DNA of 64,000 bases, from the IMG/VR virus record IMGVR_UViG_2061766007_000327; one strand, given 5' to 3'. The translations under genes were made by a program, and so were the position numbers. The stretch comes from an uncultured virus (IMG/VR IMGVR_UViG_2061766007_000327). Lineage: Duplodnaviria; Heunggongvirae; Uroviricota; Caudoviricetes. Below the pieces are notes generated by a model. It did no database searches, had not been told where the DNA came from, and saw only the letters and a program-made list of their open reading frames with translations. This document shows, in pieces, positions 38,386 through 47,678 of this stretch (position 1 is its first letter; every line of letters starts with the position of its first letter).

Positions 38386-38787
38386 ATGGCAAGATTAGAT
38401 TCTTACGACAGATTACCCGGCGGAATGCGGGAATACTTGTCTTTCAATGATTATCACTTCTCTAAGCCCATGTATATGTGGGCTGTAAGCATGATGAGGG
38501 ATAAAAACGGAAGCAAGGTCGAGCCGATGACAAAGGAGTCTGTGATGGAAATCCTAAAGCGGAACAATGTCGAAATCGAAAAAGACATGGGCTACGACGT
38601 GCCCTTCGTCTTTATGCGCAAAAAGACGGATTCTCTTGGCGGTTCCATCCCTGATGAGGCTCACCTAGCCATGGCGGTCAAGGAGTTCTTCACGGATAAG
38701 GACGGGTACGACACAATGGCATTTGATGAGTTTCTTACAAAACTCAATGCCCTTGGGATTCCCGTAGACTGGTCAAGTATGCTTTAG
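38386..38787 (+). CDS. hypothetical protein
   Basis: YHFSKPM...DKDGY...IPVDWSSML; member of the cassette. Confidence 0.65.
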   Translation: MARLDSYDRLPGGMREYLSFNDYHFSKPMYMWAVSMMRDKNGSKVEPMTKESVMEILKRNNVEIEKDMGYDVPFVFMRKKTDSLGGSIPDEAHLAMAVKEFFTDKDGYDTMAFDEFLTKLNALGIPVDWSSML

Positions 38788-39362
38788 TCGGCATAGCGGA
38801 AGGTGCAACCATGATGTATTTTTTGAGTCCCCTTTGCGCAACGGACAATAGCATACCGATAAAATCCGTCCGCCTCGGCACAATGAAGTGATTTGTAGTA
38901 GGTTTCATTTCCCGAACTATCGGTACAGATAACCGGACGGCTATACCTGCGATACAGTTCTTTCTTTATGGCCACTGCGTGTGGGTTTCTGGCATTCTCG
39001 CTTCTGCATACCCATCTCAAGTTTTCGGCTCTATTATCGTGCCTGACGGCGTTTATGTGGTCAACCTCTTTCCCGGGTTCCGGGAGGCCGTGAAAGGCGG
39101 AACAAACCAGAATGTGTGCGGTAATGCCTTTCACGAACTTATCTTTAGATAAGTGCAAAGATGGATATCCGCTCTGAGACAGGGACTGCCTCATAATATG
39201 CTCCTTGATTGTCCTGGTTGCGCCATAAACTGTCGGTACCATACGAGAAATAGCCTTTATCCTTCCAGTGTTAGAAGCTTGGTAATAACCTTCCCACCCA
39301 GGGATATCCTTCCAAACCTCGCCTGGCATGTCTTCAAGGGACAGATTTTGATACGGTAACAT
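38784..39362 (-). CDS. NUMOD4-HNH homing endonuclease
   Basis: EVWKDIPGWEGYYQASNTGRIK (NUMOD4), VDHINAVRHDNRAENLRW (HNH), C-terminal NUMOD1-like HTH. Confidence 0.9.
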   Translation of the reverse strand: MLPYQNLSLEDMPGEVWKDIPGWEGYYQASNTGRIKAISRMVPTVYGATRTIKEHIMRQSLSQSGYPSLHLSKDKFVKGITAHILVCSAFHGLPEPGKEVDHINAVRHDNRAENLRWVCRSENARNPHAVAIKKELYRRYSRPVICTDSSGNETYYKSLHCAEADGFYRYAIVRCAKGTQKIHHGCTFRYAD

Positions 39363-39467
39363 ATCGCTGATGATTTATAGTTAGCTGATGAAAATAAAGA
39401 GCGGAAGGCGCATCAGCTTCGCTTTTCGGAAGGTAGCTACTCCATTCCTATCCGCTCTACAAATATA
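39363..39467 (-). promoter_or_regulatory. promoter plus structured 5' leader of HNH gene 1
   Basis: TATATTTG (39467-39460), then stem AGAGCGGA/TCCGCTCT, two inner hairpins and two CATCAGC boxes. Confidence 0.7.
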
Positions 39468-43519: not shown

Positions 43520-44236
43520 TTAACAATCAGGGTCAAAATGTTGATAATACTCTGGCTCTTCTTTCACTCCCAATTTCTTAAGGTCAGCGTAAAGATTGGC
43601 AAGAAAGTCTGCCATATCATCACAATAATCTTTTCTCAATGCCGCAACAATAGAGAAGAGTCTATCTATCTGCTCCTCGCTGGGTTTCCAATGAGGTTTG
43701 AGGGATTTGAGCCAAGCAATATCAGATTTTACGGCCTCTATCTTATCATAGTCGGATTTGCATCCCTTTACATATTCCAACGCTTCTAAAACATTAGCAT
43801 AATGTAATCTATCTTCCTCGCTCCACTCTGGCTTCTGCTCTTTCTGCTTCATAGCATCATCCCACCCACGCCAATATGCAGGAGTATCACGGATGTCCGT
43901 ACCATCAGAATCGCTATGTTTTGGGCTTCTATCCTCGCATTTTGCATCTGCCGTGCAATCTGACGAAATAGAATCAGCGGATTTGGGATTTTCTTTCTGC
44001 TTTTCAAGCCAAGCAATATATCTACTTGCTGCTTCTTCGGTAAATGAAATACCACTATTGGAACGACCAATTTTAATGGCATCAATAAGTTGTTTCCTTA
44101 TCCTCTCATCCTCGCTCTCTGCGAGTTCGGGGAAGATTTGTTCTATCTCGTCTACAGATATGTGCATAAGGTTATAACTATCGTGGAGTTCCTTGGCTCG
44201 TTCAAGAGCCTCTTTGTACTTTTCTTCGTAGTTCAT
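43520..44236 (-). CDS. hypothetical protein (YKEALERAK / ESEDERIRK / WKPSEEQ type)
   Basis: Modular phage accessory ORF. Confidence 0.7.
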   Translation of the reverse strand: MNYEEKYKEALERAKELHDSYNLMHISVDEIEQIFPELAESEDERIRKQLIDAIKIGRSNSGISFTEEAASRYIAWLEKQKENPKSADSISSDCTADAKCEDRSPKHSDSDGTDIRDTPAYWRGWDDAMKQKEQKPEWSEEDRLHYANVLEALEYVKGCKSDYDKIEAVKSDIAWLKSLKPHWKPSEEQIDRLFSIVAALRKDYCDDMADFLANLYADLKKLGVKEEPEYYQHFDPDC

Positions 44237-44345
44237 TTCTTTTCCTCCTTTTGTTGTTTGCCACCCATCCTGCGATCCAGAAGCCGACGCTCCAGAGTCC
44301 GAGAGTGATAAATAATACTTCGTTGGTTGTCATACTTATTTCAAG

Positions 44346-45389: not shown

Positions 45390-46160
45390 TTAATTTTGCC
45401 TCCTGATTTCTTGAATCCACTTCGACAGCGTGCAAGCATTCATCTTGCAACCCTCACGGGTTGAAAATCCCGTCAGTCCCATCTCGTGGAATTCGTTAAA
45501 CTCTCGTAATATATCTTTTTGTAACCGGCCTTTCTGGACCTGCTTCTTGATCCAGCGGTAGCCGTCATTAGATTCACGCCAGGCACGGGCATCGTCAGCC
45601 TTTATCCTCGCCTGGACTGCTGTAGCGGCAGAGACATCGACGCCCTTATCATTACCGAGATGCTTGCGCCAATGCCCGGACTTGGACATAAAGCCGCCGT
45701 CCTTGGCAATCGCTTTCTTTCGCTCTTCAAGAGCCAGTTTCGTATTAATTCTGCCCATAATAGCCTGGCGTTCTGCAACCGCAAAGAGGACCGTAAGAAC
45801 GAACCTATCGGATGCAGGCACATCGCATATAACAATATTCCTTTCCCCGACAGCATCGAGGATTTCAAGAGCCTCTTGTACATTTCTCAAGCGATCAAAC
45901 TTAGAGATGCACAGAACATAGTTATTTTGCTTACACAATTCAATCGCCTCCCAAAGACCCTTACACTGTTTGAGCTTCGTCCCCGAAAACACATCCGTGA
46001 ACATCGCCACGGGGTCACGCCCCATAAACATCTTCGCAATCGCCTCCTGGGCAGACAATCCCAATCCGCTCCGACCCTGGCGGCCGGTAGATACACGCCT
46101 CCAAAGGACATATGGTCTTTGGTCGTGGAACGGAACTATTTCAACATTCTTCTTCGCCAT
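45390..46160 (-). CDS. serine recombinase (resolvase/invertase family)
   Basis: RVSTGRQ..SGLGL.AQ catalytic motif, SKFDRLR, AERQ...RINTKLAL. Confidence 0.85.
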   Translation of the reverse strand: MAKKNVEIVPFHDQRPYVLWRRVSTGRQGRSGLGLSAQEAIAKMFMGRDPVAMFTDVFSGTKLKQCKGLWEAIELCKQNNYVLCISKFDRLRNVQEALEILDAVGERNIVICDVPASDRFVLTVLFAVAERQAIMGRINTKLALEERKKAIAKDGGFMSKSGHWRKHLGNDKGVDVSAATAVQARIKADDARAWRESNDGYRWIKKQVQKGRLQKDILREFNEFHEMGLTGFSTREGCKMNACTLSKWIQEIRRQN

Positions 46161-46680
46161 AGTCTGATAAATATTGCCATTTGTATCCGTGGTGGGTCTT
46201 AAGTTTCCCCTTACAAACCTTGGAGATTTGATTCTTATTAAAGCCCCCCTCTCGCTTCGCCTCAGCTATGGACGACCAAATTTGTATCAACTGATTATCT
46301 TTGGTCAACTGTACCACCCGGAAAGATTTTGCAGCACCGTATCGCTTGCGTGAGATAGGATTCTTTTGGTTCTCACTTTGGTTACACCAGCGGAGATTAT
46401 CCGCTCGATTATTTCTACGATTAGTGTCGATGTGGTCGACAAATGGCTTATTATCGGGATTAGGGATGAAAGCTATCGCAACCAACCGCGCGACCCTACA
46501 ACTTTGAACAGTAGTCCCTTTACATAGGTGAATATAATCATAATCTTTCAAACTAACCCAGGGCGTCATAATCCTTGTCGCCTTTGTATGGTTGTAGTTA
46601 AGACTCCGAACTCTCCCGAGATTACTCACCTCGTATAAGCCTTCATAGCCCACAACTGGTTTCCAAATTTCTTTTTCCAT
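46141..46680 (-). CDS. NUMOD4-HNH homing endonuclease
   Basis: EIWKPVVGYEGLYEVSNLGRVRS, VDHIDTNRRNNRADNLRW, NUMOD1 tail; start MEKEIW. Confidence 0.9.
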   Translation of the reverse strand: MEKEIWKPVVGYEGLYEVSNLGRVRSLNYNHTKATRIMTPWVSLKDYDYIHLCKGTTVQSCRVARLVAIAFIPNPDNKPFVDHIDTNRRNNRADNLRWCNQSENQKNPISRKRYGAAKSFRVVQLTKDNQLIQIWSSIAEAKREGGFNKNQISKVCKGKLKTHHGYKWQYLSDYGEEEC

Positions 46681-46811
46681 TGAACTGATGTTATCAATTA
46701 TACTGATGAAAAAGAAAGCAGGAAGGGCCATCAGTTTACCTTTGTCGCGAGGGGATCAAGTCTCGCTATCCTGCTTCTGTAAATATAGTCAGAAACATTT
46801 GAATATGCAAA
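46681..46811 (-). promoter_or_regulatory. promoter plus structured 5' leader of HNH gene 2
   Basis: TTTG-N20-TATATTTA, stem AAGCAGGA/TCCTGCTT, two inner hairpins, two CATCAGT boxes. Confidence 0.7.
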
Positions 46812-46935
46812 TTTTCTCAGCGTCTCGCCAACATGTCGTCGGCATATGCTATCAACATTATAAGGAAAAACATAGTCTATCGCTTTTCGTTAAACGCCTC
46901 GGGGATGAATGAAAGCGCACATAGGATGTAGATTA

Positions 46936-47217
46936 TTACAAACATGATACGAACGCTTTAAGATTATAGAATGTCCTGAACCAGTCCGCTTCAGACTGGC
47001 TCTCGTAGAAGTCGGCGCGATGATAATCCGGCTCGATATCGTCCCCTCTGAGGAAGACCGTCACATCGATACTGAATTCATCCGGCTCGTCACCGAGTGA
47101 CGGGTCTGCCTTGTCATAGCAAGACCGAATGATGAATGAATGAACGCCCTTGAGTGTCGCTTCCGTCTGCAACTGTTGCAGATCTTGAAGCATTTTTACA
47201 AACCTTTCCTTTTCCAT
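46936..47217 (-). CDS. hypothetical protein
   Basis: Start MEKERF. Confidence 0.55.
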   Translation of the reverse strand: MEKERFVKMLQDLQQLQTEATLKGVHSFIIRSCYDKADPSLGDEPDEFSIDVTVFLRGDDIEPDYHRADFYESQSEADWFRTFYNLKAFVSCL

Positions 47218-47252
47218 AATATCAGATTTACTTACAAGAAATATGCCATAAC

Positions 47253-47678
47253 TTAAAATGATAGGTCGTAATAATCTGACCTGTAACCAAGGGAAAGAAG
47301 CGTACTCCAATCCCTGCTCGTAGAACCTTCCTCTACCCAGTGGCCATTGCGCCGGAAGGTGAAGATTTTTGTGCAACTGTAAAGACTGTCGCACTTGACT
47401 TGGATCCTTTTGGGAGAAAGAATCTTTTCGACGTGTGCGCCACTGCGGTCGGAATACCAATGTACCGTACAAGGCATGCCGACTTCGGGAATAACCTGCT
47501 TACGCATCTTGTCGCGTGTTTCCGACAGTTCATGGTACTCATCCCACAGGGCATTATACTCCTCGCGATAGTCATCCCATTTGCGCCCTGTCGCACGAAC
47601 CGCCTCCCTCTTCTGTTCATTTTGGGCCATACGGTCCTGGACCGCCTTGAGCTCCGACCACTTATAAATCAAATCCAT
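47253..47678 (-). CDS. hypothetical protein
   Basis: Start MDLIYK; PEVGMPCT..W.SDR and FRRNGHW...YYDLSF motifs. Confidence 0.65.
   Translation of the reverse strand: MDLIYKWSELKAVQDRMAQNEQKREAVRATGRKWDDYREEYNALWDEYHELSETRDKMRKQVIPEVGMPCTVHWYSDRSGAHVEKILSPKRIQVKCDSLYSCTKIFTFRRNGHWVEEGSTSRDWSTLLSLGYRSDYYDLSF

Follow-up and report, generated by a model that had tools for sequence, protein, structure and literature searches.

Homing endonucleases and similar add-on genes need to be expressed in a way that does not harm their carrier phage, which raises the question of what limits their expression. The question arises in a 64,000-nucleotide (nt) stretch of DNA from an uncultured virus of the Caudoviricetes (IMG/VR record IMGVR_UViG_2061766007_000327; this whole stretch is called the window below). 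On its minus strand, an HNH endonuclease gene is preceded at 46678-46811 by a leader (copy 2), and a similar leader (copy 1) precedes a second HNH gene. Comparison with relatives supports an RNA fold with three helices, P1, P2, and P3, in which the loop of P3 is complementary to two downstream boxes, the second of them next to the start codon. Our favored explanation, to which we assign a probability of roughly 55%, is that the leader would act as a translational throttle through this loop-box pairing, with the first box serving as a decoy. The two leaders are related to the Rfam family int-alpA (RF02996).

Elements of the two leader copies

The preliminary description of this locus, made from the sequence alone, had read copy 2 as a promoter followed by a structured RNA, two boxes, and an AUG, and each of the elements it listed was found on the minus strand at its position, letter for letter. 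In the direction of the gene, copy 2 begins with TTTG (46808..46811), a candidate -33 promoter element 20 nt upstream of a TAnnTTTR box. The latter, TATATTTA (46780..46787), is a candidate Bacteroidota -7 promoter box of the TAnnTTTG type. The 5′ strand of P1, GAAGCAGGA (46769..46777), has as its partner the 3′ strand UCCUGCUUU (46715..46723), read in the pairing as UCCUGCUU(U). Together with P2 and P3, P1 forms a three-way junction. The junction strand UA leads from P1 to the P2 hairpin (46747..46766), in which GCGAG and CUCGC enclose the loop ACUUGAUCCC (46752-46761) with the 4-nt palindrome GAUC. The next junction strand, J2/3, reads GACAAA (46741..46746; family consensus GAMAAR) and is followed by the P3 hairpin (46726..46740), consisting of GGU, the loop AAACUGAUG (46729-46737), and GCC. 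The third junction strand, J3/1, reads CU (46724-46725) and lies just 5′ of the P1 3′ strand. Behind the nine pairs of P1 follow a U-rich linker, UCUUUUU (46709..46715), which is possibly the tail of a leaky terminator, then box 1, CAUCAGU (46702..46708), an A/U-rich spacer of 11 nt (46691..46701), and box 2, again CAUCAGU (46684..46690), both boxes being complementary to the P3 loop. Box 2 ends 3 nt (UCA) before the AUG (46680-46678) of a gene of 179 amino acids (46141..46680) for an I-HmuI-like homing endonuclease of the NUMOD4-HNH_3 type.

Copy 1 (39360..39467, minus strand) has the same order of elements, with the -7 box at 39460-39467, the junction at 39399-39457, box 1 at 39384-39390, box 2 at 39366-39372, and the AUG at 39360-39362. 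Its stems are GAGCGGA/UCCGCUC, GGAAUGG/CCUUCC, and GCG/CGC, its loop reads GCUGAUG, and its two CAUCAGC boxes are 11 nt apart. Direct reading of both copies bore out the claim that the letters of P1, P2, and P3 differ while pairing is kept. The loops differ in one letter, G in copy 1 and A in copy 2, and both boxes change accordingly from C to U, with the gap of 11 nt between boxes retained. By alignment columns the two leaders are 75% alike, and the two HNH proteins are 33% identical (60/180). The combination of loop, P1 3′ strand, and box, CTGATG..TCC..CATCAG, occurs at two places in the window, which are the two copies, and is absent from 100 shuffles.

The P3 loop of copy 2 contains an AUG (46731-46729) that is in frame with the gene and would give an open reading frame of 196 amino acids (46141-46731). 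This upstream start is probably not used, because in copy 1 the corresponding frame runs into a stop after 10 codons and no AUG is present in other loops.

Relatives of the leader and covariation

A strict pattern search of IMG/VR contigs yielded four further copies of the leader. A covariance model (R1) was built from these and the two window copies and run over the window, the four IMG/VR loci, and 47 loci (L005-L051) fetched as relatives of the two HNH proteins. At E≤1 it gave 12 matches, of which 6 were the seeds; the other 6 were new, all of them in the 47 HNH-relative loci and all ending at the HNH start codon. A pattern of the junction core with a free loop found at least 121 loci; in 100 of these, R1 gave 36 matches at E≤0.01. 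The alignment used below (A5) contains 49 matches of R1 at E≤0.01, which make up 46 distinct rows and stem from 60 chosen sources (the earlier matches and the rest) among phage contigs. As an independent approach, a structure parse accepted members on P1, P2, and P3 alone; 49 of 91 unique cores passed, and copy 2 was added by hand (n=50).

In the 46 distinct sequences, the 16 pairs of the junction were paired to 95.3%, compared to 70.9% in shuffles and 44-56% with a slid partner. Both sides had changed in 11 of the 16 pairs, amounting to 178 double-change cells versus 45 in shuffles. The compensatory changes noted in the preliminary description for the two copies thus held in the larger alignment, as none of 500 shuffles scored as high. 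Three pairs of P1 were invariant (GGA/UCC) and three had changed on both sides, and in P2 all five pairs had changed on both sides. RNAalifold independently predicted these three helices and no structure downstream of them. Within the junction pairs, G-U outnumbered A-C by 59 to 13, and this excess indicates an RNA that is read on the strand of the gene.

The pairings between the P3 loop and the boxes behaved similarly. Loop and box 1 were paired to 87.8% (62.1% in shuffles) with 54 double-change cells (15.7 in shuffles), loop and box 2 to 77.0% (56.9%) with 47 double-change cells (18.3), and in either case none of 500 shuffles was as high in cells or in score. All seven pairs of the loop with box 1 and all seven with box 2 had changed on both sides. 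Words unrelated to those of the window were found in the relatives, for example GCUUACA with UGUAAGC, GCAACGG with CCGUUGC or CCGUUGU, GCUAAC with GUUAGC or GUUAGU, and UUGCGACAUU with AAUGUCGC and UGUCGCAA. In the structure parse, both boxes formed at least 7 contiguous pairs with the loop in 29 of 50 members; when loops were combined with the downstream regions of other members as a control, this was the case in 109 of 2440 combinations. These results support both pairings as parts of the predicted structure.

Some phages carry more than one word. One contig with two leaders (L004/L119 and L010/L120) has the loop words GCUGAUG and GCUUACA, with the P2 palindrome UAGCUA in both leaders, and another (L099 and L100) has GCUGAUG and UUCUGAG. 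In the window, the loop of copy 1 could still pair with the boxes of copy 2 via one G-U pair. The CUGAUG in the loop was also considered as part of a hammerhead ribozyme, and this candidate was rejected since the word lies in a hairpin loop, changes freely in relatives, and was not accompanied by a ribozyme match in Rfam. A triple helix of the U-rich linker along the purine-rich P1 was rejected as well, as the letters did not fit by eye. Matches to C/D-box small nucleolar RNAs on the plus strand were chance matches (E 0.07-3, far below the cut-offs).

The junction strands and the three P1 pairs beside them were invariant across the 46 sequences, and the rest varied. Such a core (GGA-UA, GAMAAR, CU-UCC) might serve as a pocket for a protein or a small molecule whose binding picks the box, so that the leader would be a riboswitch-like or protein-operated switch; the two mutually exclusive pairings of equal energy (see below) meet the needs of a switch. 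We consider such a switch quite improbable: the search of Rfam gave no match to a riboswitch or protein-binding leader, the genes served are functionally unrelated and thus suggest no common ligand, and the invariant letters may just fix the geometry of the junction.

Outside the sources described above, few matches were obtained. With R1, no match was obtained in the two nearest cultured phages (0/2), in three Bacteroidales genomes (0/3), or in 151 genomes of the order Bacteroidales (0/151), for which only 26 candidates were scored per genome. A scan of bacterial genomes with the core pattern was dominated by chance matches; 6 of 120 loci passed the structure filter, one of which (L291) was motif-like, and the scan gave no host information. 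The int-alpA model RF02996 matched none of 1 genome and 14 control genomes, a comparison that is uninformative.

Promoter, U-rich tail, boxes, and P2 loop

Of the 46 distinct members, 40 have a TAnnTTT[GA] box, which we take to be the Bacteroidota -7 element, no more than 22 nt ahead of the RNA. TTTG, presumably the Bacteroidota -33 element, was found 12-30 nt upstream of this box in 16 of the 46. A sigma-70 scan lists 46811..46782 (9/12), but the scan total was no higher than in shuffles. The TAnnTTTR box of copy 2 stops 2-3 nt short of the first pair of P1, and the same holds for 40 of 46 relatives. From this spacing we infer that transcripts should begin at or just inside P1, a few nucleotides past the -7 box.

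The nine nucleotides behind P1 are 47% U in the family, although the tract is irregular; at least five of them are U in 25 of 50 members, and a run of at least three U is present in 32 of 50. Directly following P1, such a tail could indicate transcription attenuation, in which P1 and the U-tract form a leaky terminator that lets few transcripts, whether started at the cassette promoter or at upstream genes, pass into the nuclease gene, with loop-box pairing in a secondary role such as stabilization of the RNA. There is a precedent in T4 mobE, which is limited by transcription termination (PMC2988022, in excerpt). We nevertheless regard attenuation as quite unlikely here. The boxes lie downstream of the U-tract and cannot sway termination in cis, and their covariation with the loop is nonetheless as strong as that of the stems; moreover, a branched stem is atypical for an intrinsic terminator, and the position of box 2 at the AUG would be unaccounted for. 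A terminator scan did not list P1 plus the U-tract; its rule requires a loop of 3-8 nt, and here the loop is the whole junction.

The spacer between the boxes consists of 52% A and 36% U (88% A+U), the gap measures 5-15 nt with a mode of 10, and the start-to-start distance has a mode of 17-19 nt. Box 2 stops 2-5 nt short of the AUG in members lacking a Shine-Dalgarno sequence, and GGAG-like Shine-Dalgarno letters lie inside it in members from other phages. The mean duplex energy with the loop was -10.9 kcal/mol for box 1 and -10.7 kcal/mol for box 2 (n=37), and the stronger partner was box 1 in 14 cases and box 2 in 20 cases, with 3 cases equal. The two boxes are thus isoenergetic partners of the P3 loop.

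A perfect palindrome of at least 6 nt was found in 18 of 39 unique P2 loops, compared to 9.8% of shuffled loops (p 5e-9, relatedness of the sequences being ignored). Taking whole P2 segments, palindromes were present in 25 of 46, with 10 different hexamers (again ignoring relatedness), and in none of 44 P3 loops. The palindrome is UAGCUA in copy 1 and just GAUC in copy 2. This enrichment suggests that the RNA may form dimers through kissing P2 loops.

Tail, boxes, and palindromes bear on another explanation, in which the junction is a separate small RNA, ended at P1 and the U-tract or cut out, that acts in trans as an antisense RNA on both boxes of read-through messages, and a dimer kissed through P2 holds both of them. 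In Rfam, the related family int-alpA (RF02996) is classed as 'Gene; sRNA', and the two equal target boxes at fairly regular spacing, the U-rich tail, and the enriched P2-loop palindromes would all suit a small RNA of this kind, as would the precedent of the P4 CI RNA with its sites seqA and seqC (PMC4825925, in excerpt). It is nonetheless rather unlikely in our view, as some members, such as L002, have a weak U-tract or none (fewer than five U among the nine letters in 25 of 50), P1 and the U-tract were not listed in the terminator scan, and a loop tethered in cis to its boxes would normally beat a copy acting in trans.

A translational throttle as the favored explanation

We propose that the leader acts as a throttle on translation. 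Promoter and leader would form the head of a self-contained expression cassette, with about 100 nt of structured mRNA leader behind a Bacteroidota-type promoter. In the predicted fold, P1 closes the junction, P3 is continuous with the 3′ strand of P1, and the strands UA, GAMAAR, and CU are conserved. A stretch of 7-8 nt in the P3 loop may pair with either of the two equal downstream boxes. When the loop lies on box 2, at -10 to -4 from the AUG, where the Shine-Dalgarno sequence is usually located in other bacteria, it would bury the landing region of the ribosome and block 30S initiation. Box 1 is located about 18 nt farther upstream and is transcribed before box 2; with the loop parked there, as on a decoy, the A/U-rich start region would be open. 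The message would partition between open and closed states, so that the selfish or accessory gene would be expressed at a low level and not at zero. Leader and gene would travel together as one module. That the two pairings are of nearly equal strength is the reason for proposing a built-in throttle.

The Bacteroidota branch is instructive here, since hosts of this phylum are not known to rely on Shine-Dalgarno pairing. This leaves loop and boxes free to drift, yet box 2 has stayed at the AUG. The position of the boxes points to a steric block of the ribosome landing site rather than to masking of a Shine-Dalgarno sequence.

Several observations weigh against the throttle or the fold on which it relies. 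The folding energies of single sequences were ordinary, with z scores of -0.5 to -2.2 across both copies, and the minimum-free-energy fold of copy 1 differs from the junction; that of copy 2 equals the proposed junction, with z scores of -1.0 (100 nt) and -1.7 (70 nt). The support for the fold is comparative and not thermodynamic, and energies alone would not have flagged either copy. In 41 of the 47 HNH-relative loci no leader copy was found at E≤1, which means that homing endonucleases do not need the leader. Occlusion of the start region requires only box 2, so that the equal complementarity of box 1 and the P2 palindrome are left unaccounted for, and P1 with its U-rich tail would equally suit a terminator. 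Finally, the pseudoknot columns show no excess of G-U over A-C (9 versus 7 for box 1, 12 versus 18 for box 2), so the argument for the strand rests on the junction helices. In part, these counts reflect slippage of the register in a region that was aligned by sequence.

The lack of a G-U excess would be expected if the three matching words, one inverted and two direct, were not RNA partners and served instead as DNA operators for a protein of cassette-specific specificity. I-TevI, for example, represses its own promoter via an operator resembling its homing site (PMC2988022, in excerpt). This explanation is highly improbable, because the inverted word always lies exactly in the apical loop of a helix established by covariation, the arrangement also precedes genes without a DNA-binding nuclease (DUF1376, Bro-N), and the box variants in the close relatives L025, L026, and L030 are C-to-U changes that retain a G-U pair.

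The features that the throttle leaves unaccounted for would be covered by an extended version, in which the leader is a sensor of RNA concentration: in the monomer the P3 loop would rest on the decoy and the message would be translated, whereas at high levels of transcripts or of terminated junction RNAs the P2 loops would kiss, and the two P3 loops of the dimer would clamp both boxes of a single message together and shut off translation. This sensor would explain together the single loop, the two equal and regularly spaced boxes, and the self-complementary second loop. We consider it unlikely on the present sequences. If true, it would be a protein-free, programmable negative-feedback module carried by selfish phage genes.

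Irrespective of dimerization, the throttle would be a single portable RNA module that, together with its promoter, appears to solve the problem of limiting expression for many unrelated genes in phages of very different hosts. A module of about 100 nt that has its specificity in 7-8 exchangeable letters and may dimerize is a candidate for a natural programmable throttle and possibly for an expression part for Bacteroides.

Genes behind the leader and variation among metagenome contigs

The protein encoded behind copy 2 matched Pfam NUMOD4 (1.6e-11) and HNH_3 (7.7e-10), PHROG 59 'HNH endonuclease' (1.9e-45), and, over its full length, the 'HNH homing endonuclease' PDB 1u3e (E 4e-18). The second HNH gene, behind copy 1, extends over 38784-39362 (minus strand). 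Among 46 downstream proteins scanned in the relatives, 14 had NUMOD4 and/or HNH_3 domains, 5 GIY-YIG (one weak), 1 Endonuclease VII, 3 DUF1376, 1 Bro-N, 1 an integrase SAM-like domain, and 1 HTH domains; 3 gave sub-threshold matches only, and 17 had no Pfam match. Including both window genes, homing-type nucleases account for 22 of 48 genes behind the leader. Judged by these genes, the leader forms a portable head for genes of a selfish or accessory kind and is not specific for HNH genes. The preliminary description had named it an HNH leader; an HNH gene does follow the structured leader in copy 2 as in copy 1, and the specificity implied by the name does not hold, as GIY-YIG, EndoVII, DUF1376, Bro-N, and integrase-like genes follow too. 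Apart from this point and the family status treated below, that first reading was correct, and the predicted element is a real one, supported by covariation.

The start of a gene for a serine recombinase of the resolvase/invertase type (45390-46160, minus strand; Pfam Resolvase 2.1e-11, PHROG 125 'DNA invertase') overlaps the end of the copy 2 HNH gene by 20 nt, so that the endonuclease gene sits right on the start of its neighbor.

Variants in the population were compared on contigs only, from the metagenome runs X3, X4, X5, and X9. Copy 2 with its leader and gene was present in contigs of two runs from different studies, with 37 differences over 1293 nt for X5 and 102 over ~2000 nt for X9. 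At copy 1, a segment of the HNH gene (38773-39279) was replaced by 510 other letters in X4, X5, and X9, and the leader and the first codons (39280 onward) were kept. The leader seems to mark a recombination boundary where one gene body is exchanged for another. A contig of low depth (~9) from X4 joins 38783 to 39393 via 27 other letters; the HNH gene and both boxes are gone, and the promoter, the junction, and part of the U-tract stay. If this allele without a gene (38784-39392 missing) is real, the junction RNA can exist alone; the contig could also be a metagenome chimera. At the upstream edge of the copy 2 cassette, a 79-nt segment upstream of the promoter (46862-46940) was replaced by 7 letters in X3 and X4, which constitutes a length polymorphism.

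Another region of the same contigs stood out by depth. Within 43998-44345, in the minus-strand open reading frame 43520-44236, contig depth rose 5- to 30-fold in all four runs (in X3, 549 versus ~20-90 nearby). Many loose ends were located there at 43998, 44093, 44134, and 44137, and recurrent joints skipped 74-76 nt (44016/44018 to 44093). This region is either a short segment common to many genomes or a variable repeat in a gene without assigned function.

The window as a phage genome

The window is that of a tailed phage, with terminase, portal, major head protein, and tape measure genes on the plus strand and a block of small genes on the minus strand. Eight records from cultured phages were related to the major head protein, six of them Bacteroides or Phocaeicola phages (~28% identity); the weakest was vB_RanS_PJN03, from sewage water. 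The DNA of the window is represented in bovine gut metagenome runs, with no RNA run listed among them, and the phage is a gut phage of the Bacteroides type. A megablast search with 46000-47500 against the phage collection gave no match.

Relationship to int-alpA and other known systems

The closest catalogued relative is int-alpA, in which P1, UA, P2, GAAAAG, P3, CU, the 3′ strand of P1, a U-rich tail, and a box complementary to the P3 loop follow one another. Both window copies show this order of the three-way junction, with GACAAA as J2/3 in copy 2, and in both it is followed by a U-rich tail and a box that complements the P3 loop (int-alpA model positions 57-71). Copy 1 aligned with the int-alpA model from end to end with 30.7 bits (E 4.9e-5), below the gathering cut-off of 35.8 bits; for copy 2 no match was obtained on the minus strand at E≤10, and the whole window gave no match in Rfam at the gathering threshold. 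Among pattern loci, 8 of 20 picked by eye as GAAAAGCG type reached the int-alpA gathering score, so that a core pattern derived from the window type also picked up true int-alpA members, and the int-alpA model found none of 20 loci of the window's subtype at E≤1. The window branch differs from int-alpA by a longer P2, by GACAAG(A) as J2/3, by its Bacteroidota-type promoter, and by a box 2 that abuts the AUG without Shine-Dalgarno letters. It precedes homing endonucleases, whereas int-alpA is named for integrase and alpA genes. The name presumably refers to a position beside such genes; neither window copy has this neighborhood, and 1 of 46 relatives precedes an integrase-like gene. Judged by element order and model score, the window leaders are a divergent, uncatalogued branch of this catalogued but uncharacterized family.

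The int-alpA motif is reportedly due to Weinberg et al. 2017, as a candidate from comparative genomics. The main text of PMC5737381, to which this check was confined, does not contain the term. No function for int-alpA was found in the literature searched, where the term occurred in a family table or as a gene order. Searches for a structured RNA with a kissing or palindromic loop in phages of Bacteroides-like hosts found nothing, and searches for an RNA motif or pseudoknot linked to HNH endonucleases in Bacteroidetes phages found nothing relevant. If the throttle proposed here is correct, it would give the family a function.

In T-even phages, homing endonucleases are repressed via RNA structures that sequester the ribosome-binding site (PMC2988022, in excerpt). 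For I-TevI, I-TevII, I-TevIII, segB, and Aeh1 mobE, as in our proposal, a structure adjacent to the start hides the ribosome-binding region and the enzyme is kept scarce; these structures are simple hairpins that hold the Shine-Dalgarno site and are escaped by a late promoter inside the structure. Copy 2 has no Shine-Dalgarno sequence, and instead the region before its AUG pairs with a distant hairpin loop. In the window, moreover, the promoter lies upstream of the whole fold, the blocker would be a hairpin loop forming a pseudoknot, the candidate decoy box is additional, and one conserved fold is common to unrelated genes.

Complementarity to two sites, comparable to that of the leader, is known from the C4 antisense RNA of P1/P7 with its a1b1/a2b2 pairings; the Rfam C4 model gave no match at E≤10 around either copy. 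For the P4 CI RNA, the two complementary partner sites, seqA and seqC, belong to its own operon (PMC4825925, in excerpt). There, too, a short stretch of a small structured phage RNA complements two sites in one transcription unit, and the words covary between phages. The P4 sites flank the RNA, pairing causes transcription termination, and CI is processed from the transcript. In the window leader, both boxes lie downstream of the junction, the second at the start codon.

The dimerization initiation site (DIS) of HIV-1 is a kissing-loop hairpin. Like the DIS, the P2 loop of copy 1 has an apical 6-nt self-complementary word flanked by purines (AG-UAGCUA), and in loops of relatives such as AAG-UCAUGA-G and AGG-UAAUUA-A the word varies with self-complementarity kept. 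The palindrome of copy 2 comprises only 4 nt (GAUC), the biological context is unrelated, and dimerization of the leader is a prediction from the letters alone, in which the same type of loop would join two copies of a phage mRNA leader.

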